64,000 nt of DNA from contig NC_017080.1 in the NCBI RefSeq assembly GCF_000284115.1, positions 3,401,534 through 3,465,533 of the forward strand. Reading direction: 5' to 3'. Positions 9,575-33,185 of the stretch are shown piece after piece. The notes under the pieces were generated by a model that saw only the letters and a list, made by a program, of their open reading frames with translations, was not told where the DNA came from and ran no database searches. Every line of letters starts with the position of its first letter. Position 1 is the stretch's first letter. Made by a program: the position numbers and the translations under genes. Source of the DNA: Phycisphaera mikurensis NBRC 102666. GTDB taxonomy: Bacteria > Planctomycetota > Phycisphaerae > Phycisphaerales > Phycisphaeraceae.

Positions 9575-10696
9575 ATGCCGCCCGACTCCCCCCAAGCCAA
9601 AGACACGGCGTTGCAGCCGGCCGGCCGGCAGACCTTCGCCGCCTTCGAGCTGGCGTCGGTCCTCAGCCACTACGACCTAGGCGTCATCGAGGAGATCCAC
9701 GAGTTCCCCAAAGGCTCGCGGAAGGCGCCCAAGCTGATCCTCAAGACCGACGCCGGCGAGTACCTGCTCAAGCGGCGGGCGCCATCGGCTTTCGACCGCG
9801 AGAAAGCGGCCTTCACGCACGGGCTGCAGGTGCACCTGGCGAACAAGGGCTTCCCGCTCCCGCGGCTGATGGTCACGCGGAGCCAGGAGCGCACGATGCT
9901 CCGCCTCTCCGAGCAGACCTACGAGGTGTTCCAGTACATCCGGGGCGACGCGTACGACTTCTCCCTGGACGCCACCCGCGACTCCGGCCAGACCCTGGGC
10001 ATCTTCCACGGGCTGCTGCAGAAGTACGCGAGCAACTACACGCCGCCCCGCGGGAGCTACCACGCGAGCCGGTCGGTGATGACCGCCCTGGGGATGCTCG
10101 AGGAGACCCTGACGCGGCACGCCGCCCGGGCCGCGCCGCCCGAAGCCGAGACGCTGGAGCGGATGAGCCCGCTGGACCGCTCGCCCGCGGAGCTCACCGC
10201 GCACCTGCGCTCGTGCTACGTCGACGCCGTGCGCAAGTGCGAGTCGCTGGGCATCAAGCGGTGGCCCAGCCAGGTGATCCACGCCGACTGGCACGGCGGG
10301 AACATGCTCTTCCGAGCCCGCCGCGTCGTCGCGGTGATCGACTACGACACCTCCCGCTACGGCCCGCGCGTCATCGACACCGCCAACGGGGCGCTGCAGT
10401 TCTCGATGAGCAGCGGCGGAGCCGACCCCACCGCCTGGGGCGACGGCATCGAGGAGGACCGCTTCGCGGCTTTCCTCTCCGGCTACGACGACGCCGAGAA
10501 CGACGTGCTCGCCCAGGCCGAGCTCGCGGCGATCCCGCACCTGATGATCGAGGCCCTGCTCGCCGAGAGCGTGCTGCCCATCGCCCAGACCGGCTTCTTC
10601 GCCCGCATGGACGGCCAGCCCTTCCTCTCGATGATCCGCCGGAAGGTCGGCTGGATCCGGGACCACGCGGAGCGGCTGGTCTCGCTGGTGGAGTAG
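9575..10696 (+). CDS. Phosphotransferase-family kinase (APH / homoserine-kinase-II fold); candidate sugar-1-kinase
   Basis: The Brenner motif 'VIHADWHGGNMLF' and the 'VIDYD' metal-binding motif are present. It sits directly downstream of manC. Confidence 0.7.
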   Translation: MPPDSPQAKDTALQPAGRQTFAAFELASVLSHYDLGVIEEIHEFPKGSRKAPKLILKTDAGEYLLKRRAPSAFDREKAAFTHGLQVHLANKGFPLPRLMVTRSQERTMLRLSEQTYEVFQYIRGDAYDFSLDATRDSGQTLGIFHGLLQKYASNYTPPRGSYHASRSVMTALGMLEETLTRHAARAAPPEAETLERMSPLDRSPAELTAHLRSCYVDAVRKCESLGIKRWPSQVIHADWHGGNMLFRARRVVAVIDYDTSRYGPRVIDTANGALQFSMSSGGADPTAWGDGIEEDRFAAFLSGYDDAENDVLAQAELAAIPHLMIEALLAESVLPIAQTGFFARMDGQPFLSMIRRKVGWIRDHAERLVSLVE

Positions 10697-12921: not shown

Positions 12922-13083
12922 ATGGAGCGGTACCTCTTCCTGATCGTCCTGACGCCCTGCCTCCTCCCGGTCCTGGGGTTGGTCCTGCTGGCATTGGCCG
13001 CTCTTTGGCGCACGCTGCAAGACGACCGCCGCCGCCGCAAGGCCCTCGATTCCGCGGATCGTGGCCCGCATGGCTCCGAATGA
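12922..13083 (+). CDS. Possible small membrane protein (53 aa)
   Basis: ATG 12922 to TGA 13081-13083. A single hydrophobic helix 'YLFLIVLTPCLLPVLGLVLLALAALW' is followed by an RRRRK stop-transfer. It is too short for the ORF track. Confidence 0.2.
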   Translation: MERYLFLIVLTPCLLPVLGLVLLALAALWRTLQDDRRRRKALDSADRGPHGSE

Positions 13084-13299
13084 GCGACGGTCCGCGGGAA
13101 CGTGGATCGAAACCGCGGAAGGAAGCGGCCGGCAGCAGGTTCGTCCCTGCGGGAGCACGGATTCTCGAGCGTGCTCTCTGGCCATCGCCCCCGCAGGGCG
13201 GGCTGTGCCCGCGGCAAGGGTGCTGGGTGCCGCGTCCACGCGGCTCCCGCCCTGCGCGAGGCCGGCACGGGGGAGCGTGCCGCGCATCGGCACCAACGT

Positions 13300-14376
13300 C
13301 TAGATCCACCTCTTCCAGCGGAACCAGCCGAGCAGCCCGAGCATCGAGCCGCCGCAGAGGAACACGAAGATCCAGAAGCCGTAGGGACTGTCGGACAGCG
13401 GGAGCTGCGCAAAGTTCATCCCGAAGACGCCGGCGAAGAAGCTCGCGGGGATGAACAGCGAGGCGATGACGGTGAGCACCTTCATCACCTCGTTCATGCG
13501 GGTGCTCATCGCGTTCATCCAGGTGTCGGCCAGCCCGCTGGCGGACTCGCGGTGGACCTCCAGCGCCTCCATCGCCTGGACCGCGTGGTCGTGGACGTCG
13601 CGCAGGAACAGCCGCGTCGTCTCGTCGATCAGCTCCGGGTCGATCTCGCCGAGGTTGCGCAGCATGTCGCGCATGGGCGCCAGCTCGCGGCGGGTGTGGA
13701 CCAGCTCGCGCTTGAGGTCGTGGACGACGCCGATCACGTGCTCGTCGGGGTCGGTGTAGATGCGGTCCTCGATCGCCTCGATCCGCTCGGCGTGGTGCTC
13801 GAGCACGGGGAAGACCGCGTCGGCGATCGCGTCGAGCAGGGCGTAGAGGAGGAAGGGGGCGCCGTTCTGCCGCAGCCGCGACTTCTTCCGAGAGATCCGC
13901 GTCCGCACCTGGTCCCAGACGTCGCCGGGCTCCTCCGTGAAGGTGATGAGCACCCGGGGCCCCAGGAAGAAGCTCACCTGCTCGGAGAGCACGGCGGCGT
14001 GCTCGGGCCCGTCGGGGGTGTGGGCCTCGCCGGCGGCCTCCCGCAGGCGGACCATGCGGGCGACCAGAAACAGCCGCAGGTTCTCGGGGTCGTCGCTGTC
14101 GAAGATCTCCGCCTTGCTCCGCTGGTTCGTGTGGACGACGTCCTCCATCGCCAGCGGATGCAGGCCGTAGCGCTTCGCGAGGCCGGCGAGGGCGGCGGGA
14201 TCGTCCACGCGGTCGACGTGGATCCAGCGGACGGTGACGCCCTCGGGCGGCGGGCGGTGCAGCTCCTCGGCGGCGGGCACGACGCGCACGTCGTGCAGGT
14301 CGGGGCCGTAGTCGGTGCGGGTGATGACCGCCGCGTGCGCGGCGGGCGTCATCTTCGCCAGCTGCTCGGGCGTCAT
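13300..14376 (-). CDS. corA: Magnesium/cobalt transporter CorA
   Basis: The GMN signature 'GVFGMNF' sits before the last two TM helices. The start 'MTPEQLAKMTP' (cat at 14374-14376) was chosen to avoid a 115-nt overlap with xylB; the track start at 14652 is probably an over-extension. Confidence 0.8.
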   Translation of the reverse strand: MTPEQLAKMTPAAHAAVITRTDYGPDLHDVRVVPAAEELHRPPPEGVTVRWIHVDRVDDPAALAGLAKRYGLHPLAMEDVVHTNQRSKAEIFDSDDPENLRLFLVARMVRLREAAGEAHTPDGPEHAAVLSEQVSFFLGPRVLITFTEEPGDVWDQVRTRISRKKSRLRQNGAPFLLYALLDAIADAVFPVLEHHAERIEAIEDRIYTDPDEHVIGVVHDLKRELVHTRRELAPMRDMLRNLGEIDPELIDETTRLFLRDVHDHAVQAMEALEVHRESASGLADTWMNAMSTRMNEVMKVLTVIASLFIPASFFAGVFGMNFAQLPLSDSPYGFWIFVFLCGGSMLGLLGWFRWKRWI

Positions 14377-16094: not shown

Positions 16095-16340
16095 AAGGAG
16101 CGGCCTGCGGCCGCGGCTTTTTCTGGAAGAGACGAAGAGACGAAGAGACGCGGCGGGCGCGGATCGGGAACCCGAATCAGGTTGCCGCTCCTGGCAGATC
16201 CACGCGCGCGGAGCCGCCACGCGCAGAGACGAAGTCAGCAAGATCAAGAACGCCGCGCGGAGCAACGACGCGCGTTGCCTGTCTCCGTCTCTTCGTCTCT
16301 CCGTCTCTTCGTCTCTCCGCCCCCCTCCCGTCTAGCCTCC
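16095..16340. repeat. Inverted repeats of (AGAGACGA)n around a roughly 150-bp core in the xylB / M48-peptidase divergent intergenic region
   Basis: 'gagacgaagagacgaagagacgcggcggg' at about 16117-16150 and its reverse complement 'gtctccgtctcttcgtctctccgtctcttcgtctctccgcc' at about 16282-16322 can be read directly in the sequence. Confidence 0.5.
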
Positions 16341-25013: not shown

Positions 25014-28000
25014 TCAGCTCCGGTCGCTGTTCTCGAGCTTGTCGATGACGCGGCCCCAGCGGTGGGTGAGCTTGTCGAGGGTCTGCTGCAGCTCGGTGAG
25101 CTGGCCGTCCTGGCGGGCGTTGACCTGGGCGAAGGGCTCGATCCAGCTCTGCATGATCTCGAATTGCTCCTTCATCACGTAGAGGAAGGTGTCGGGGATC
25201 TTGTTGACGACGCGGATCTCCTGCGGGTGCGTATCGCCGGTGGCTCGCTCCCCCCGGGAGCGTTGACTCCCGTCCAGCTTCGCAGCCGCCGCCTCCAACG
25301 CCGCCACGATCCCGGCGACGTCGACCTCCAGGTTCACCGGCGCCGGTGGCAAGCGGCCGTCGCGGACGGCCGAGGCGATCCCGCCGATCGCGGCGTTCAC
25401 CTTCGAAAGCTCGGCGATGGCCGCGGCGGTCGCGTCGCCGGACGAAACGGCGGCGGCGACGGAGGCCGCGGAGCCACTGATCTTGCTCAGCTCGGCGATG
25501 GCGGCGGCGGTCGCGTCGCCGGACGAAACGGCGGCGGCGACGGAGGCCGCGGAGCCACTGATCTTGCTCAGCTCGGCGATGGCGGCGGCGGTCGCGTCGC
25601 CGCCGAGTGCTCTGACGCTGTTGTTCCGCACGAAGGCGGACTTGATCTCCACCCACCGCTCTTCCTGCTCGGGTGTGAGCCCGAAGACCAGCTCGCGGAA
25701 CTTGAGCAGGTTGGCCTCGGCGCCGGTGGTGAGCGTCTGCGCATCCTGCTCGTAGGCGGAGACGATCAGCTCCCGCAGCTCCGCGTCGTTCATGACGGCG
25801 GAGACCTTCTCGGCGATGCGGTTCATGTTCCGGTAGCTGCCTTGCAGCAGGAACGGCGGCTCGGTGCGGTAGTCGTCGTCCTGACCGGCGGAGGCGATGT
25901 ACGCGAGGTTGACCTTCAGGATCACATCGCGGACGCGGGCCAGCTTCCGCACGACCTCGACCATCTCCGCCAGCTCGTCGGGCGGGAAGCTCCCGTCGAA
26001 CTCGACTCCGTCGGGCGAGGCGCCGCCGGCGAGGCGGATGACGCGGTGAACGTCGTCGCGGGTTGCCGTGGCCAGCGGGTTCAGCGCCGGGTTGCTGGTG
26101 AGCGCGTTCTCGAGGTAGCTCATCTCGAAGGCGTCGCCGTGCGCCCCGATGATGTCGCCGAGGTTGTACGTGTCGGCCCGGTTGCTGAGCATGTCCGGGA
26201 TGCGGAAGGCCTCGCCCGACTCCGTGTACGGGTTGCCGGCCATGACCACGGCGACCCGCCGGCCGCGGAAGTCGTAGGCCTTGGGCTTGCCGTGGCGGAC
26301 GCCCTCGATCCGGCGCTGGGCGTCGCAGAGGCTGATGAACTTCTGCAGGAACGCGGGGTTCGTGTGCTGGATGTCGTCGACGTAGACCATCACGTTGTCG
26401 CCCATCTCAAAGCCGAGGTTCAGCTTCTGCAGCTCCTCCTTCGCCGCGGCGTTGGTGGCCTCGGCGGGGTCCAGCGAAGTGACGCCGTGCCCGAGCGCCG
26501 GGCCGTTGATCTTGAGGAACACCATGCCCAGCCGGGCGCACACGTATTCCATCAGCGTCGTCTTGCCGTAGCCGGGCGGCGAGATGAGCAGCAGCAGGCC
26601 CATGCGGTCGGTCCGGGTGTCGGCGCCGGCGGTGCCGATCTGCTTGGCGAGGTTGTCGCCGATCAGCGGCAGGAAGACCTCGTCGAGCAGCCGATTCCGG
26701 ACGAAGCTGGTGAGCACCTTCGGCTTGAAGGTGTCGAGCCGCATCTGGTCGCGGGCTTCTTTAAGCACCTCGTGCTTGGTGTCGCTGAACGCCTCGAACG
26801 CGGCGACGCCGGCGGTGGCGAAGCGCCGCATGCGCGGGACCCAGACCGGGTAATCGATCGTCAGCTCGCCGCCGCGGATGCGGGGGTGGTCGCCGACGAG
26901 GTTCTCCACGCTGCGCGTTGGCGAGGCGTCGAGGACGCGGAGGTTGTTCTCACCTCCGGCGAGGCGCAGCGCAACTTCCGGGTCACGATCCCAGGTGCGG
27001 GCGAGGCGGAAGCGCTCCACGGCATCCGGAGCCGCTTCGAGCGCGGCGGCGAGCGGCTCGCCCGCCGTCTCGCGCAGCGAGGCGGCGGACGCAACCGCCC
27101 CGCCGCTCGCCGCGAAGCGGACCTCGCCGCCGATCCCCGCGAGGCCGACCTCGGCGGCGAGCACGGCAACGGCCTCGTCGGCTTGCTCGGCCGTGAACCC
27201 CCCGACCTCCTCCGCGAATCCGCGGACCGTGGCCTCCAGCGCCGGGAAACCTCCACGGTCCGCGGCATCCGCCTCTGCCTCTGTGCCTCCTCTGTGCCTC
27301 TGTGCCTCCGTGTCCTCTGCGTTCCGCGAAGCGGGTCCCGGAGACGCGGCCGCGGCGGCGTTGGCGAGGCGGAGGTGCCACAGCTTCCGCTCATCGTCGG
27401 TGGCGCCGGCCTCCCACCAAAGCTGCGCCAGCACCCGAGCGGGGGCGGAGAAGCGGAGCGTGCCCAGCGTGTCCCGCAGCTCGACCAGGGCCGACAGGAT
27501 CTTCGCCGCGTCGGCGTCGTGGACGCCCTTCACGTAGCCCTCGGCGTAGCGCGGCGCCATGTACGCCTGCACCGCCTCGACGGAGGTGCCCGCGCCCGCT
27601 TCGAGCATGAGGTACGCGAGGTACTCCGCCCGGTACACGCTCGCGGACTCGCTGACCAGCGCCTGGTCCCACCGCGCAGACGCTCCACGCAGGCGGGGAT
27701 CCGCAACCTCCTCGAAGAACTGCGTGCCGGTGACGTGCAGCACCGGCGTGTCGTCGCGGTGCACGAGCGTCAGGTCGATCGGCTGCGTGCTGATCGCGAA
27801 GGTGTGCCGGCCGAAGCGGATCGTGTCGCGGCCGCCGCCCTGCAGGTCGAGCCGATCCTTGAGCCGCCGGACGGCGTCCTCCTTCGCGGCCTTCAGCCCC
27901 GCGCGCAGGTCACCCTCGCGTACCCGGTCGTCCATCCCGCCCAGCTCGTCCGCGAGGTCGCGGAGCTTCTCGACCATCAGGTCGCCGGCGAAGTAGGCGT

Positions 28001-30416
28001 TGATCTCCTCGACCGCGTCCATCGACTCGACCCGCGAACGGACCGTCCCGAGGATCCGTTCCGCCGCCCGGGCGAGCGTGTCGGCCCGCTGGTTCTTCTG
28101 CTCGACGAGCGCGAGCCTTCGCTGCTCGAAGGCCGCGAGCACCTCCTCGCGCTTCTCGATGAGCACCCCGACGAAGTCGTCGAAGCCGCCGAAGCTCGCT
28201 TCGAGTTCCTCGACCTGGACCATCAGCTTCGCGAGCGAGGCGTCGGCCTTCTCGGGCGTGTCGGCCAGCTCCAGCGCGTTGGTGATGCTCTGCTCCAGCA
28301 GCTTCAGCCGGGAGGCGAACTCGGCGGCGCCTTCCTGTTGGCCCAGCTCCTGCCGCCGGGCCCGCAGCCGGGAGCGGGTGGCGTTCAACCGGGAGAAGAC
28401 CTCGGAGATCGCCTCGACCACCGCGGTCCGCTGCGTCGCGTCGTCGATGTCGAGGTTGTTGACGACGTCGATCAGCAGCTCCAGCTCGCCGGCTGCCTCG
28501 GCGACTTCGTCGCCGAGGGCTTCGGCCTCGGCCGCGGTGGCGAGGGCACCGACGGCTTCGTCCTGCGCCCGGACCCGATCGCGGTACGGGTCCAGCGCGT
28601 CGTCGCGGAGCAGGAACGAGAGCGTCTTCTGCGAGACGGCCTCGGTCTGATCGACGACCTCGGCCTCCATCGCCTCGACCTCGCCCGGGTCGACATGCCG
28701 CAGCTCGCGGAGGCCGATGACCTCGCCGCGGACCGCCCGCAGCGCCGCGAGCGTCTCGACGTACCCGCCGACCTCGTCGGGGTTCGCCACGCGGGCCGAG
28801 GCGATCGCGGCGTCGACCTCCGACCGCACCTCCGCGACGGCCCGGGCCGTCTCGCGTCGCTGCCGGGTCAGCTTCTCGTACTCCCCCACCGCCGCGGCCG
28901 CCGCGTCGCGGATGCCCGCCAGCGGCTCGGCCACCCGCGCGGCGGCATCTTCTCCTAGCCAGAAGTAGGTGTCCAGCAGGTCACCGGCCTGCTTGACGAG
29001 GTCGGCGTACAGCGATTGGTAGAGGTCCTCCCGCGTCGCGAGCCCGAGCACCTGCCGGGCCTCGGCCATGGCCCGGACCACGTCGCGGTTGCCGATCCGC
29101 TTGAGCGGGTTGTCGTCCCCCCCGCCGGCCACCGCGGGCGCGACGTGGTCGGGCCCCACGAACGGAGTCGTCCAGTTCTGCACCGCGTGGTGCTTCTGCG
29201 GCTCGGCGCCCTCCGGAGACTTGAACAGCAGCAGCCGCCCGTCGTCGCGGAAGGCGTAGCCGTTGCACACGATCGGCGCGGCGACTTGGCGGGCGATCAG
29301 GTTGTACGCGAACAGCACGTAGACGCCCCGCTCCCGCTGGTAGAAGACGTAGAGGAAGTCCTCTCCATTCGGAGACACGACCCTGCGGTCGAAGGTGAGC
29401 CCGCCCGGGGCCGCCACCAGGTCCGCCACCGCCGCGAACACCTGCTTCTCGCCGGTGGCGAGGTACACGCCGTCGGCGGTCATCACGCCCTGGTCCTCGG
29501 GCAGCAGCACCGCGGCAGTGCCCAGGCCGTCGGCCCGGACCGCGGTGCCGAGCTTCGTGTTGAAGACGAAGTGCCGCCACGCCTTCTCGCGGTACGGGCG
29601 GATGCGCAGCAGGACCAGCGGGCCCTCGACCACGTACAGCACGTCGGCGTCGTCGAGGCCCTGGTCCGGCTCGTCCACCGGCTCGGCCAGGATGCCCTCG
29701 CCCGTCTCGGTGTTGTTCTCGACCTTGATGGTCAGGTCGCCCCCGGTGGTCTCGACGAAGACCAGGTCCTCGATCGAGTAGTGCGGGAACCGCCCGCCGG
29801 TCTGCATGTCGCGGGTCACGCGTTTCCACGCGAAGTCGTGCTGGGGCGGGTAGGTGACCTCGTGGTCGGATCGATTGCCGAGGTAGGCCAGACCTTCTCC
29901 TTCTTGTCCTGACTCGCCGGGGGCGAATGCCCACTTGAACGCCTTGAAGTCGTCGACGGTCCGGCCGGTCCGGAACTTCATGTAGACGTGGGGCCCGCGG
30001 CGGAAGAACTTGGTGAAGCGTGCGTCCTTGTAGAAGCGCATCAGGTCGGTGAAGTCCTTCCTGAAGCTCTCGTTCTCCAGCAGCCCGAGGCCGTCGTCGT
30101 GGAAGACCGCTTCGTCGTCCTGCCGGTAGCAGGCGAAGACGTCGCCGAGGTCGACGGTGCTCTTGAGGCCGAAGTGCACGTTGAAGCCCATCAGCACGCG
30201 GTCGCCGACGGCCACGATGTCCCGCGGCACGCAGGCGTGCGCCGTGGTCACCCGCGAGGTGCCGGCCAGCGCGAGCTCGACGCTGCCGAACGCCTCCTTC
30301 CGCTTCGCGTTGAGCGCCTCGAGCCGCTCCCGCAGCTCTCTCGCCTGCGCATCGAGCCGCCCGCGGAGCACGTCGTAGGAAGACCGGTCGAGCTGTTCGG
30401 GTGGGGCGTCAGGCAT
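25014..30416 (-). CDS. Giant (1800 aa) AAA+ ATPase with a coiled-coil region, C-terminal tandem repeats and a conserved C-terminal domain; family unknown
   Basis: Protein-like composition across the whole ORF. Walker A 'LLLISPPGYGKTTL', Walker B 'VMVYVDDIQ' and the 'VAVVMAGNPYTESGEAFRIPDMLSNRADTYNLG' sensor region sit at about residues 1215-1400 (AAA_5/MoxR-like). A long E/A/R-rich helical middle fits a coiled coil. Three 26-aa repeats '..AAIAELSKISGSAASVAAAVSSGDAT' lie at residues about 1585-1660. The gene is immediately downstream of the flotillin and NfeD genes, in the same orientation. Confidence 0.75.
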   Translation of the reverse strand: MPDAPPEQLDRSSYDVLRGRLDAQARELRERLEALNAKRKEAFGSVELALAGTSRVTTAHACVPRDIVAVGDRVLMGFNVHFGLKSTVDLGDVFACYRQDDEAVFHDDGLGLLENESFRKDFTDLMRFYKDARFTKFFRRGPHVYMKFRTGRTVDDFKAFKWAFAPGESGQEGEGLAYLGNRSDHEVTYPPQHDFAWKRVTRDMQTGGRFPHYSIEDLVFVETTGGDLTIKVENNTETGEGILAEPVDEPDQGLDDADVLYVVEGPLVLLRIRPYREKAWRHFVFNTKLGTAVRADGLGTAAVLLPEDQGVMTADGVYLATGEKQVFAAVADLVAAPGGLTFDRRVVSPNGEDFLYVFYQRERGVYVLFAYNLIARQVAAPIVCNGYAFRDDGRLLLFKSPEGAEPQKHHAVQNWTTPFVGPDHVAPAVAGGGDDNPLKRIGNRDVVRAMAEARQVLGLATREDLYQSLYADLVKQAGDLLDTYFWLGEDAAARVAEPLAGIRDAAAAAVGEYEKLTRQRRETARAVAEVRSEVDAAIASARVANPDEVGGYVETLAALRAVRGEVIGLRELRHVDPGEVEAMEAEVVDQTEAVSQKTLSFLLRDDALDPYRDRVRAQDEAVGALATAAEAEALGDEVAEAAGELELLIDVVNNLDIDDATQRTAVVEAISEVFSRLNATRSRLRARRQELGQQEGAAEFASRLKLLEQSITNALELADTPEKADASLAKLMVQVEELEASFGGFDDFVGVLIEKREEVLAAFEQRRLALVEQKNQRADTLARAAERILGTVRSRVESMDAVEEINAYFAGDLMVEKLRDLADELGGMDDRVREGDLRAGLKAAKEDAVRRLKDRLDLQGGGRDTIRFGRHTFAISTQPIDLTLVHRDDTPVLHVTGTQFFEEVADPRLRGASARWDQALVSESASVYRAEYLAYLMLEAGAGTSVEAVQAYMAPRYAEGYVKGVHDADAAKILSALVELRDTLGTLRFSAPARVLAQLWWEAGATDDERKLWHLRLANAAAAASPGPASRNAEDTEAQRHRGGTEAEADAADRGGFPALEATVRGFAEEVGGFTAEQADEAVAVLAAEVGLAGIGGEVRFAASGGAVASAASLRETAGEPLAAALEAAPDAVERFRLARTWDRDPEVALRLAGGENNLRVLDASPTRSVENLVGDHPRIRGGELTIDYPVWVPRMRRFATAGVAAFEAFSDTKHEVLKEARDQMRLDTFKPKVLTSFVRNRLLDEVFLPLIGDNLAKQIGTAGADTRTDRMGLLLLISPPGYGKTTLMEYVCARLGMVFLKINGPALGHGVTSLDPAEATNAAAKEELQKLNLGFEMGDNVMVYVDDIQHTNPAFLQKFISLCDAQRRIEGVRHGKPKAYDFRGRRVAVVMAGNPYTESGEAFRIPDMLSNRADTYNLGDIIGAHGDAFEMSYLENALTSNPALNPLATATRDDVHRVIRLAGGASPDGVEFDGSFPPDELAEMVEVVRKLARVRDVILKVNLAYIASAGQDDDYRTEPPFLLQGSYRNMNRIAEKVSAVMNDAELRELIVSAYEQDAQTLTTGAEANLLKFRELVFGLTPEQEERWVEIKSAFVRNNSVRALGGDATAAAIAELSKISGSAASVAAAVSSGDATAAAIAELSKISGSAASVAAAVSSGDATAAAIAELSKVNAAIGGIASAVRDGRLPPAPVNLEVDVAGIVAALEAAAAKLDGSQRSRGERATGDTHPQEIRVVNKIPDTFLYVMKEQFEIMQSWIEPFAQVNARQDGQLTELQQTLDKLTHRWGRVIDKLENSDRS
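25400..25640. repeat. Roughly 78-bp direct tandem repeats (about 3 copies) inside the giant ATPase gene; they encode 26-aa protein repeats
   Basis: 'gctcggcgatggc.gcggcggtcgcgtcgccggacgaaacggcggcggcgacggaggccgcggagccactgatcttgctca' recurs at about 25411, 25491 and 25572. Confidence 0.7.
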
Positions 30417-30457
30417 CAGCGGTGTCGCTCGTGGTTCGGATGCTGCGGGGCGGGAGG

Positions 30458-30988
30458 TGTACGAGCGGCGCTTCGCTTGATCACAGAGAGCACAGAGGCA
30501 CAGAGGCCACAGAGAGGCACAGAGGTTGGGGCTCAGGCTTGGTCGGCGATCACGCGGCGGCTGTGGTCTCGGATGTTGTCGCCGTGGAAATTGATCAGGA
30601 GGCCCAGTGGCAACTGCATTGCGCGGAGATAAGTGATGACCTGGTCGCGATGAGCATCGTGGAGTCGCTCTACAGCCTTCAACTCGATCACGAGCTCGCC
30701 CTCGACAAGGAGATCCACCTTTCCTTCGCCAACCACCACGTCCTTGTAAACCAGCCGGACCGAAACCTGCCGCTCGAAGGAGATGCCACGCGAACCCAAC
30801 TCGACAGCCAGCGCATTCTCGTAGGTCTGCTCCCTGAATCCCGCACCCAGTGCCGAATGCACCTCCATGGCGGCACCCAACACCCGCCCGGTCAGTTCGC
30901 TGTCGCTCATCTTCTTCCTCCGTGCCTCTCTCTGTGGCCTCTGTGCCTCTGTGCTCTCCGTGTTCAAGCGAAGCGCTGCCCGCACGCA
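30458..30988. mobile_element. MITE-like cassette: GxxExxY gene bracketed by roughly 58-bp imperfect inverted repeats built from CACAGAGG-type units
   Basis: Left arm 30458-30520 is 'gcgcttcgcttgatcacagagagcacagaggcacagaggccacagagaggcacagagg'. Right arm 30911-30988 is 'cctccgtgcctctctctgtggcctctgtgcctctgtgctctccgtgttcaagcgaagcgc'. The right arm is the reverse complement of the left with a few mismatches and one 2-bp indel. Confidence 0.55.
30533..30910 (-). CDS. GxxExxY protein (PD-(D/E)XK nuclease-fold family)
   Basis: 125 aa from 'MSDSELTGRVLGAAMEVHSALGAGFREQTYENALAVEL' (GxxExxY motif). 'DLLVEGELVIELKAVERL' fits D..E.K PD-(D/E)XK geometry. Start at cat 30908-30910; the track ORF extends 25 codons upstream into the repeat arm. 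Confidence 0.8.
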   Translation of the reverse strand: MSDSELTGRVLGAAMEVHSALGAGFREQTYENALAVELGSRGISFERQVSVRLVYKDVVVGEGKVDLLVEGELVIELKAVERLHDAHRDQVITYLRAMQLPLGLLINFHGDNIRDHSRRVIADQA

Positions 30989-31001
30989 GCTGACTCCCGA
31001 A

Positions 31002-32999
31002 TCACCCCCCGATCTCGCTGAGGCGTTTGTCGCTCGCGCCCGTGGCTTTGGCGAGGCCGAGCAGGCCTTTCAGCTCGCCGAGCAGGCCCTCGTCGTCGGA
31101 AGAGGCCATGGCTTTGCCGAGCAGCGCGGCGATGGTGAGGTTCTTCACGTCCTCCGAGGACACGCCGGTCTGCTGGACGAGCTCCTTGAGCCGGCCGCCG
31201 AACTCGCCGTTGGACAAAGCTCCCCCCGGGCCGTCGCCGGAGAGCTGAGACGCGATGCGCTCGACGTGCTTGGAGTTGTCGACGAAGCGGTCGACCTGCT
31301 TGCCGCGGGTGATCGCGTTGATGAGGTTGTCGAAGAAGACGCCGTCGCCGCCGACGATGTCGATGTTCGCGGACTTGAGCGCCTCGGCCAGCACCCTCGC
31401 CTGCTCGGCGGCGATGTCCTTCTGGATGCCAATCTCGGCGAGCTCGACCTGGAGCCTCCGCTCCAGCTCCAGCTTGAACTCCTCGTGCTCCTTGCCCACG
31501 CCGTCGAGCTTCCGCATCGCCTCGGCCTTGGCCGCGACGGCCTCGGCCTCGGCGTTGCCCTTGGCCCGCATCACCTGCGCCTCGGCGGCGCCGTACTTGT
31601 CGAGCGCCCCGGCCTGGGCGTCCATCACCTCGGCTTCGGCCAGGCCCGCGGCGGCCTTCTCGGCCTGCAGCGCCTCGGCCATCTTCATCTTGCCCAGCGC
31701 CTCCTGCTCGGCCGCCTCGCGGTGGGCGCCCGCCTCGATGAGGATTTCCTCGGCCTGGAACTTCGCGGCCAGCTGCCCGGCCTCGGCCTTCTGCACTTCC
31801 TGCACCTTGGCCTCCTCCGCCTTGGCCTGGGCCGCGGTGACGCTGACGGTCTTCGCCCGCTCGGCGGCGGCGACCTCTTCGGTGTCCTTGATCTTCTCCT
31901 GCTCCTCGACGACCGCCCGCTCGACGACGACCCGCTCGCGGATGACGTCCTGGATCTGGCGGCGCTGCTCCTCGAGCGCCTTCTCCTTCTCGATCTCCGC
32001 CAGCTCCACCACGCGCTCGCGCTCGGTCGCTTCGAGCCCCTTCTCCCGCAGCACGCGCTCGCTCTCGACGGCGTCGGTCTTCTCCTTGGCCTTGGCCGCG
32101 ACCAGGATCTGGCGGAGCTTGTTCTGCTCGGCGATGCCCAGCTCCTCCTCGGTGCTGATGCGGGCCCGCTCGCTCTTGAAGCGTTCCTCCTCCTCGACCT
32201 TCTGGGCCTCGGCCTGCTCACGGGCCTTGACGCTGGCGATCTCGCGGGCCTGGCGGTCTTCCGCCTCCTCCTGCTGACGCTCGAGCTCGAGGATCGCCTC
32301 GCGGGCCTCGACGTCCTGCTTCTTGATCGTCTTCTCCTTCTCGCGGGCGATGCTGTTGGACAGCACCGCCTCTCTCGCGGTCAGGTCGGTGATCTTCTTG
32401 ATCCCCTCGGCGTCGAGGATGTTGCTGGGATCGAGCTGCTTGAGGTCGGTCTGCTCGAGGTAGTCGATCGCCGCGTCGTCGAGCACGTAGCCGTTCAGGT
32501 CCGTGCCGATGTGGGCGAGGATCTCGTTCTTGAACTTCTCCCGCTCGGTGTAGAGCTCGGTGAAGTCGAAGCTCTTGCCGACGGTCTTGAGCGCCTCGGA
32601 GAACTTGGCGTCGAAGAGGTCCACCAGCGCCTGGATGTCGCTGGCCCGGCGGCAGCCGATGCTCTGGGCGACCTGCAGCACGTCGGCGCTGGCGTTGTTC
32701 ACGCGGACGAAGAAGGCGACCTTGATGTCGGCCCGGACGTTGTCCTTGCAGTTGAGCCCCTCGGAGCCGTGGCGGTAGATCTCGATCCGCTTCACCGAGA
32801 TGTCCATGAACTCGGCGCGGTGCATGATCGGGATCACCGGGATCCCCGAGAAGGTGACCTTCGTGGGACCCACGCCGGTCCGCACCAGCGCGGTGCCCTG
32901 CTCGACCTTCACGAAGAACTTCGCGAGCATCGTGAGGAAGCCCACGGCGATGACCAGGAGCCCGACGACGACGACGGCGATGACGATGGCGGTTTGCAT
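31002..32999 (-). CDS. Flotillin-family SPFH-domain protein (YqiK/FloT-like), 665 aa
   Basis: N-terminal TM 'IVIAVVVVGLLVIAVGFL', then an SPFH domain, a very long E/A/K/R-rich coiled coil, and a C-terminal flotillin-like tail. Confidence 0.85.
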   Translation of the reverse strand: MQTAIVIAVVVVGLLVIAVGFLTMLAKFFVKVEQGTALVRTGVGPTKVTFSGIPVIPIMHRAEFMDISVKRIEIYRHGSEGLNCKDNVRADIKVAFFVRVNNASADVLQVAQSIGCRRASDIQALVDLFDAKFSEALKTVGKSFDFTELYTEREKFKNEILAHIGTDLNGYVLDDAAIDYLEQTDLKQLDPSNILDAEGIKKITDLTAREAVLSNSIAREKEKTIKKQDVEAREAILELERQQEEAEDRQAREIASVKAREQAEAQKVEEEERFKSERARISTEEELGIAEQNKLRQILVAAKAKEKTDAVESERVLREKGLEATERERVVELAEIEKEKALEEQRRQIQDVIRERVVVERAVVEEQEKIKDTEEVAAAERAKTVSVTAAQAKAEEAKVQEVQKAEAGQLAAKFQAEEILIEAGAHREAAEQEALGKMKMAEALQAEKAAAGLAEAEVMDAQAGALDKYGAAEAQVMRAKGNAEAEAVAAKAEAMRKLDGVGKEHEEFKLELERRLQVELAEIGIQKDIAAEQARVLAEALKSANIDIVGGDGVFFDNLINAITRGKQVDRFVDNSKHVERIASQLSGDGPGGALSNGEFGGRLKELVQQTGVSSEDVKNLTIAALLGKAMASSDDEGLLGELKGLLGLAKATGASDKRLSEIGG

Positions 33000-33039: not shown

Positions 33040-33185
33040 GGGAGCAGAGCCGCAGAGGACGCAGATGGCCGCAGAGGGAAGAGGGGAAGGATCGAGTTGG
33101 ACTGGAGCAGCAGCTGAAGGGACGGAGCTGGGGGTTGTGCGGGAGCCTGGTCTCGGCTTTGCGTTCCTCTGCGTCCTCTGCGGGT
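33040..33185. repeat. Inverted repeat 'cgcagaggacgcagagg' / 'cctctgcgtcctctgcg' in the NfeD-flotillin intergenic spacer, related to the CAGAGG repeat family
   Basis: 'gccgcagaggacgcagatggccgcagaggg' at about 33046-33075 and 'gttcctctgcgtcctctgcgggttg' at about 33162-33186 are reverse complements. They are separated by about 90 bp. Confidence 0.5.

Follow-up and report, generated by a model that had tools for sequence, protein, structure and literature searches.

The window analyzed here is a 64,000-nucleotide (nt) stretch of Phycisphaera mikurensis NBRC 102666 (contig NC_017080.1, positions 3,401,534 to 3,465,533 of the forward strand), in which a gene of the GxxExxY family lies between a flotillin/YqiK-like gene and a giant ATPase gene and is bracketed by two arms that are reverse complements of each other (Table 1). 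An earlier note on this DNA had claimed a 125-aa GxxExxY gene between inverted-repeat arms of about 58 bp, with few mismatches and a 2-bp indel, built of short units, able to form a stem-loop of about 530 nt and partly swallowed by an over-extended open reading frame (ORF), between co-oriented flanking genes of these identities; the results below bear out each of these points. The ungapped arms (30459-30516 and 30928-30985) cover 58 nt at 91% complementarity and stand 411 nt apart. With the 2-nt indel allowed, they lengthen to 67 and 69 nt and align with 61 Watson-Crick pairs, 4 G:U pairs, 1 A:C, 1 other mismatch, and 2 gap positions, and the whole cassette, arms included, takes up 527 nt (30459-30985). 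These arms are by far the strongest inverted repeat of the 64 kb, the runner-up being 41 nt at 73%, and a local alignment of the same geometry scored 95 at the cassette against a maximum of 36 over 409 displaced positions in the window.

Both arms combine an outer motif of the form GCGCTTCGCTYRWWCAC with tandem units of the form C[AG]C[AG]GAGG. The window holds eight exact octamers of the CACAGAGG/CCTCTGTG type versus 1.75 expected, a count that was reached in none of 100 shuffles, and Tandem Repeats Finder reported period 8 at 30482-30525 and 30930-30954. The sense RNA is predicted to fold at -295.7 kcal/mol, compared with -233.2 +/- 7.7 for shuffled sequences (z = -8.2), with the arms as a single long outer stem. 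Reading along the sense strand, the flotillin stop (31002) is followed by 16 nt, the 5' arm, 6 nt, and the GxxExxY ATG (30910); the GxxExxY stop (30533-30535) is then followed by 7 nt, the 3' arm, 42 nt, and the ATG of the giant gene (30416). The inner end of the 5' arm is itself a Shine-Dalgarno (SD)-like GGAGG (30917-30921), 6 nt ahead of the ATG, so that the last arm unit is the only good SD of the GxxExxY gene and lies inside the predicted stem. No sigma-70-like promoter or terminator-like site was found within the cassette, although such a scan is of limited value for a planctomycete, and an Rfam search over 30300-31100 at E <= 10 gave no family beyond chance snoRNA/lncRNA matches. CsrA-type GGA motifs and a tRNA T-loop likeness of GGTTCAA were also considered and were dropped as inconsistent across arm classes. 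Chance and assembly artefact could be ruled out because the structure is conserved in four independent assemblies.

The gene product is 100% identical to the NCBI entry "GxxExxY protein [Phycisphaera mikurensis]" and matches PF13366 PDDEXK_3 (E 2.7e-39, 134.6 bits, cut-off 22) and TIGR04256 GxxExxY (E 1.2e-39, 135.3 bits, cut-off 35) over its full length. The mechanically called ORF (30533-30985, 150 aa, GTG start) enters the arm and places "NTESTEAQRPQREARRKK" in front of the real ATG; such arms are routinely mistranslated as spurious N- or C-terminal extensions (TEAQRHRG, RQDAK, LGVLAV). In 26 aligned sequences including the window protein, G24, E27, Y30, D66, E76, K78, Q90, and Y94 are invariant; of these, E27, D66, E76-x-K78, and Q90-xxx-Y94 match the motifs of the RecB family. 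AlphaFold models the protein with confidence, the predicted local distance difference test score (pLDDT) being 94, and no PDB entry matched the protein by sequence at E <= 1. Cas4 hidden Markov models gave weak matches (E 1e-4), but a Cas4 identity was ruled out: the protein has no cysteines and therefore no Fe-S module, it measures 125 aa versus about 200, its neighbors are yqiK and DUF3686 rather than CRISPR or cas genes, and only the core fold is shared. More than 4,000 clusters matched as relatives (PF13366), and the family is rare on plasmids (8 records); the cassette DNA itself had no match among plasmid sequences. A 2012 survey of PD-(D/E)XK proteins gives the function of GxxExxY as "Unknown".

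The inverted-repeat packaging turned out to be usual for the family. We sampled 80 metagenome loci encoding relatives 43 to 59% identical, of which 78 had enough flank, and counted an inverted repeat when its score exceeded the 99th percentile of shuffled flanks, with displaced windows in the same loci serving as the control. A gene-bracketing repeat passed this test in 69 of the 78 loci versus 4 of 146 displaced controls, and distant phage homologues (30 to 38% identical) showed no such repeat, with scores of 14 to 20. The arms consist of (T)(T)GAACC and, after it, two to four tandem units of 8 to 9 nt, and they fall into a few classes, namely GCCAAGRN (28 loci), ACAGAGRN (9, including P. mikurensis), GCAGAGRN (7), GGATT (4), and others. 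Within the GCCAAG class the arms are nearly alike although the proteins are only 53 to 77% identical, and therefore the constraint on the arms extends to their sequence and is not just one of complementarity. Cargo-less hairpins of matching arm type adjoin the cassettes of five loci (L012, L029, L033, L035, and L057). In one of them, L057, about four tandem cargo-less modules of about 130 nt each with AACCGCCAAGAC arms stand directly downstream of the cassette (about 740-1340), an arrangement that recalls clusters of repetitive extragenic palindromic (REP) sequences and bacterial interspersed mosaic elements.

The cassettes are also placed in a characteristic way within operons. By rough ORF calls, 30 of 39 loci have the cassette in the same orientation as its neighbors on both sides. 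Locus L128 carries two GxxExxY cassettes (10001-10396 and 13070-13465), each in a different spacer of one hydF-hydG-hydE operon. Their 20-nt arms (GACCGCAAAGACGCAAAGAA) abut or overlap the neighboring stop and start codons, one of them overlapping the upstream stop, and the differences between the two copies are mostly synonymous. A promoter-less, co-oriented ORF tied to a foldable imperfect inverted repeat might also be expected of an integron-like cassette, in which an attC-type palindrome is moved by a site-specific recombinase. We give this explanation a negligible probability, since the repeat brackets the ORF rather than following it, no integrase or cassette array was found, the cassettes occur singly within ordinary operons, and the arms, by reading of the sequences rather than by a formal attC model, do not have the attC core-site layout.

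By comparing the same site in related genomes, we found that the cassette occupies the yqiJ-yqiK(flotillin)-[cassette]-DUF3686 position in L001, in L002/L003, and in L090/L091, with arms of 60 to 82 nt and with cargo diverged to 52 to 80% amino acid identity between these genomes. The two closest GxxExxY homologues (68 to 71% identical) are on metagenome contigs with the gene order NfeD/YqiJ-like, flotillin, GxxExxY, DUF3686, and the same arms, of 70 to 82 nt and 82 to 91% complementary, surround them. In the Phycisphaera sp. metagenome-assembled genome (MAG) GCA_023300125.1 (L090/L091), the GxxExxY protein at this site is 57% identical while the arm sequence is unchanged, and the arms are retained despite a much lower genome GC content. 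Pairing in the 60-bp outer stem amounts to 93.3% over four orthologous cassettes, against 32 to 57% in slid registers, and 14 pairs are altered on both sides, a number equaled in none of 500 shuffles. In two complete genomes (L088 and L089) whose flotillin is 72% identical, the DUF3686 gene directly follows the flotillin gene across a plain spacer of about 105 nt with no octamer hairpin. In L087, where the flotillin is 89% identical in amino acids (86% in nucleotides) to that of L090, the site holds only a cargo-less hairpin of CGCAAAG/CGCGAAG units. These plain spacers and the empty hairpin mark the cassette as an insertion with respect to the outgroups; it is old, probably made in an ancestor of the P. 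mikurensis clade and retained since. The claim of a discrete cassette added to the operon spacer is upheld by these relatives, while the idea of a recent or strain-specific insertion has to be given up, as the cassette is kept at the same site in four related genomes with diverged cargo. Presence/absence and arm-class differences exist at this site between fairly close genomes.

The ratio of nonsynonymous to synonymous substitution rates (dN/dS) among the orthologous GxxExxY genes is 0.11 to 0.23, and therefore the protein is maintained under purifying selection. For the same genome pairs, dS is 1.1 to 2.4 in GxxExxY versus 0.37 to 0.87 in the flotillin and giant genes, and the trees differ as well, GxxExxY giving ((L001,L002),P.mik) and the flanking genes ((P.mik,L001),L002). 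Nucleotide identity between orthologues is 73 to 92% in the arms and 59 to 72% in the cargo. In GC content the cassette ranks below every other 378-nt stretch in the window (0.606 vs 0.726 +/- 0.045), its GC content at third codon positions (GC3) is 0.75 versus 0.94 to 0.97 in the neighbors, and in 45 of 48 metagenome loci the gene is poorer in GC than its flanks. Part of the dS excess of the cargo may come from the near-saturated GC3 of the neighbors; the dS values, the tree, and the arm class of L087 leave room for replacement of the cassette at this site and do not prove it.

These data bear on the view that the element is domesticated, that is, that the hairpins are host signals for RNA processing or stability, similar to REP or intercistronic stem-loops, which set the relative expression of yqiJ, yqiK, and DUF3686, and that GxxExxY is a host gene in the service of the operon and not a selfish cargo. 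In the P. mikurensis clade, octamer hairpins are conserved in both spacers of the operon, synteny of the cassette persists over a long divergence, its protein is under purifying selection, and the stem shows compensatory changes, all of which would suit such a role. However, like packaging is found in unrelated contexts (twice in the hydEFG operon, and in 69 of 78 loci with diverse neighbors), relatives have this operon without the cassette, and GC and GC3 of the cassette are strongly atypical for the host. Moreover, the dS of the cargo is two to five times that of its neighbors, its tree conflicts with theirs, and the sense strand has no G:U bias. We consider domestication unlikely on balance, though worth keeping in mind.

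A second small-protein family proved to be packaged in the same manner. Outside rRNA we sampled 23 genes of the four-helix-bundle family PF05635, one that adjoins a GxxExxY cassette on contig L067 and 22 from IMG/VR contigs, and tandem-octamer inverted repeats (GGCTGTAG, GACTGTTG, AGTCTGGAG, and GGCTTCAG types) bracket every one of them. The inner arm end is 5 to 15 nt from the ATG in most of these loci, and the cargo matches the Avd protein of diversity-generating retroelements. In the samples, the arm classes of the GxxExxY and four-helix-bundle cargoes do not overlap, even on the shared contig L067. The specificity of arm classes for a cargo family is nevertheless provisional because the four-helix-bundle sample represents a narrow subfamily. 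Curated family notes may already link the two families, which serves as a lead only.

PF05635 is also the ORF family of intervening sequences (IVSs) of 23S rRNA, of which ORF-containing examples occur in Coxiella burnetii and Leptospira. The IVS of Coxiella burnetii measures 428 to 444 nt, lies in helix 45 of 23S rRNA, and has inverted repeats that form a 28-bp stem cut by RNase III; just 5' of an ORF of about 120 aa for the S23p four-helix bundle stand an AG-rich SD and three GACAGAT repeats in tandem, GC is below that of the genome, and the element was acquired once and then inherited vertically (PMC4990558). In addition, 23S_rRNA_IVP genes wedged between genes of cas operons, for example cmr3/cmr2, were described and left unexplained (PMC3936711). 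The P. mikurensis cassette resembles these IVSs in its size (elements of about 430 to 530 nt), in terminal inverted repeats that form a long stem, and in a single ORF of about 120 aa that fills the loop. It shares the tandem purine-rich repeats of 7 to 8 nt with an ACAG core in the 5' arm before the ATG (GACAGAT three times in Coxiella, CACAGAGG in P. mikurensis), the AG-rich SD in or near the stem, the GC content below that of the host, and a single acquisition followed by vertical inheritance; the non-rRNA four-helix-bundle genes have tandem-octamer arms too. The differences are that the cassette lies in an mRNA operon spacer between protein genes, not in a 23S rRNA helix (9, 25, or 45), that its cargo is a PF13366 PD-(D/E)XK nuclease, not a PF05635 four-helix bundle, and that its stem measures about 60 bp, against 28 bp in Coxiella. 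Furthermore, RNase III excision is established for the rRNA IVSs and is a proposal for the cassette, and purifying selection acts on the ORF of the cassette, while that of Coxiella is reported to decay.

The earlier note had called the structure a MITE-like cargo cassette (MITEs are miniature transposable elements with inverted repeats). Its cassette nature stands, and so does the recurrence of the arm type without GxxExxY cargo, seen in a solo copy at 27270-27340 and in a nested hairpin in L006. An ordinary MITE or transposon end would mean that the arms are terminal inverted repeats (TIRs) moved in trans by a transposase encoded elsewhere, with GxxExxY as a passenger; the small size and the repeats, the copies at L006 of a related MAG that share the outer motif but lack cargo, the solo arm in the window, and the empty hairpins next to cassettes in the five loci named above fit this picture. 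The intact conserved 125-aa ORF does not; no target-site duplication was found at 57 aligned element ends, and none of the cassettes examined had a transposase nearby. Typical TIRs do not consist of short tandem units as these arms do, the inner arm end is placed as the SD of the gene, and arm classes that differ by cargo family, even on L067, are not expected of a passenger. A non-autonomous MITE was rejected because of the conserved ORF under purifying selection, and movement in trans seems to us quite improbable. Some bacterial MITEs, for example the Neisseria Correia elements, are co-transcribed with their neighbors, and the cassette is like them in having intergenic inverted repeats that could fold in operon transcripts and in the existence of cargo-less hairpins (33050-33183; L087); it differs in its conserved ORF, its tandem-repeat arms, the lack of a target-site duplication, and the lack of a known cognate transposase. 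REPtrons offer another comparison, as they also place a single small gene between inverted copies of a short repeat that is found gene-free elsewhere (here L006, L057, and 27270-27340), with an arm type apparently tied to the gene family. Membership was rejected because the flanked gene encodes a PD-(D/E)XK nuclease related to RecB/Cas4, not a REP-associated tyrosine transposase (RAYT; an IS200/IS605-like HUH/Y1 transposase), and the arms are tandem octamers, not single GTAG-headed REP hairpins, of which REPtrons are accompanied by many cargo-less copies.

According to the above comparisons, the closer analogue of the cassette is the ORF-bearing 23S rRNA IVS, not the MITE. We consider it probable that the cassette is an IVS-type hairpin element, namely a promoter-less small nuclease gene in the loop of a tandem-octamer hairpin lodged in an mRNA operon spacer. 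It would have entered the intercistronic spacer between yqiK/flotillin and DUF3686 in an ancestor of the P. mikurensis clade and would be transcribed by read-through of the operon. By analogy with the rRNA IVSs, RNase III may cut the RNA stem of about 60 bp, which would part the flotillin and ATPase messages and set free a transcript of GxxExxY. The stem would sequester the SD-like purine units with which the 5' arm ends on its inner side, and therefore translation of the nuclease would depend on the state of the hairpin. The nuclease, in turn, may act on single-stranded or cruciform DNA of its own arms and so spread, replace, or maintain the cassette.

Several observations weigh against this IVS-type interpretation. 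Transcription, RNase III cleavage, and SD sequestration are proposed by analogy. Among the arm mismatches on the sense strand, G:U (44) is not in excess over A:C (56), and therefore selection for pairing is not demonstrably exerted at the level of the sense RNA. No target-site duplication could be seen by eye at the cassette or the other aligned-arm loci (57 in all), no precise empty site of the same arm class was available, and no set of identical multiple copies was found; with neither duplications nor such a set, current mobility is unproven. The outer-arm pattern, scanned over one genome per species, returned no P. mikurensis locus, not even the two matches of the window itself, the source being absent or masked there. 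The cassette has been stable at its site through a dS of about 0.4 to 0.9 of the neighbors, which also fits a domesticated function. No 23S rRNA was found beside or around the fetched cassettes, a weak negative, the query being an E. coli 23S fragment, and the four-helix-bundle sample, drawn from viral-contig bins, is a narrow one.

An extension of the IVS-type interpretation, which we put forward as a tentative idea with rather less than even prospects, is that GxxExxY cassettes, four-helix-bundle cassettes, and ORF-bearing rRNA IVSs form one class of autonomous hairpin-borne selfish elements in transcribed operon and rRNA spacers. Each cargo protein would recognize its own tandem-octamer arms, and the GxxExxY nuclease would catalyze hairpin-directed insertion or replacement via single-stranded or cruciform DNA. 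If true, this would be a mechanism of mobility without transposase or integrase and would explain the origin of the rRNA IVSs.

The GxxExxY family and IVSs as such are already known. Literature searches with the arm sequences returned nothing, and searches with the family names gave, within the library covered, no account of the function, architecture, or genomic packaging of GxxExxY; we found no published description of tandem-octamer hairpins on GxxExxY genes, of the same hairpins on four-helix-bundle genes, or of cassettes of this kind in operons that encode mRNA. We regard the cassette as an IVS-like element with nuclease cargo in an mRNA spacer, a selfish-looking cassette that is the usual packaging of the family and not a one-off. 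The hairpin chassis that most sampled members share with the four-helix-bundle proteins, co-oriented within operons, ties two orphan families to one type of element, and the origin and mobility of rRNA IVSs gain a concrete nuclease-plus-hairpin model. A 60-bp intercistronic stem could also alter the expression of annotated operons.

Table 1. The GxxExxY cassette, its neighbors, and related repeats in the window
Feature	Position	Strand	Description
5' arm (sense)	30917..30985	-	Outer motif GCGCTTCGCTTGAAC, then tandem CACGGAG/CACAGAGG units
GxxExxY gene	30533..30910	-	125 aa; minimal PD-(D/E)XK nuclease with RecB/Cas4-type motifs, no cysteines
3' arm (sense)	30459..30525	-	CCTCTGTG units, then outer motif GATCAAGCGAAGCGC; reverse complement of 5' arm with 2-nt indel
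Flotillin/YqiK-like gene, upstream	31002..32999	-	665 aa
Giant ATPase gene, downstream	25014..30416	-	1800 aa; DUF3686 + DUF7902 + AAA_5
Solo 5'-arm-type copy	27270..27340	-	GCTTCGCGGAAC plus CGCAGAGG/CACGGAGG/CACAGAGG units
Cargo-less hairpin, spacer from NfeD/YqiJ-like gene to flotillin gene	33050..33183	-	Arms 33050-33076 and 33157-33183; CGCAGAGG-type units; 80-nt loop

Besides the cassette itself, the arm-type repeats inside the window comprise one solo arm of the cassette type and two hairpins of other unit types. The solo arm is read in frame as part of a hypervariable linker of the giant protein, where it encodes ...NAEDTEAQRHRGGTEAEADA..., and L001 and L002 have different palindromic inserts at this place, which looks like a hotspot for in-frame palindrome insertion. 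Rickettsia palindromic elements insert in frame into genes. The solo arm resembles them in being translated within a variable linker whose orthologues carry other palindromic inserts; it differs in sequence family and host, and P. mikurensis has only a half-element. The cargo-less hairpin upstream of the flotillin gene is kept in L001-L003 with its unit altered on both arms (GCAGAGG vs GCAGATG), while the yqiJ-flotillin spacer of the outgroups L087-L089 measures only 14 to 46 nt. The other hairpin is a tandem-octamer inverted repeat at 16126-16150 and 16282-16319 (GAAGAGAC / GTCTCTTC) with a loop of about 130 nt; it is intergenic and has no ORF cargo, and beside it stands a GC hairpin with a T run after it (16100-16125).

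Beyond the window, the outer-arm scan returned three loci, all in other organisms. L006, on a different contig of the same MAG as L090, is a nested hairpin with the same outer motif, no GxxExxY gene, and a tandemly duplicated right half; L004, from a Planctomycetota MAG, has a solo arm within a spacer of 55 nt; and in L005 an arm is found where a Lentisphaeria contig ends. An empty hairpin in L076 (3003-3066) has AACCACAGATGAACACAGAT arms, a unit nearly the same as the GACAGAT repeat of the Coxiella 23S rRNA IVS. In L002, inverted arms of 63 nt built of a 9-nt unit (TCCGGGGCT; 70-132 and 569-631, 436 nt apart) fall within an apparent single coding ORF and translate as GAS... and ...TPR tripeptide runs.

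As for the neighboring genes, the flotillin/YqiK-like protein had no Pfam or NCBIfam match at E <= 1e-3; the sources of its homologues name these "flotillin family protein" or YqiK, and PF01145 is present in one of them. Near its 3' end, the giant gene contains an 81-nt tandem repeat (25397-25602; 2.5 copies, 94% matches) that gives a repeated 27-aa segment, GDATAAAIAELSKISGSAASVAAAVSS.

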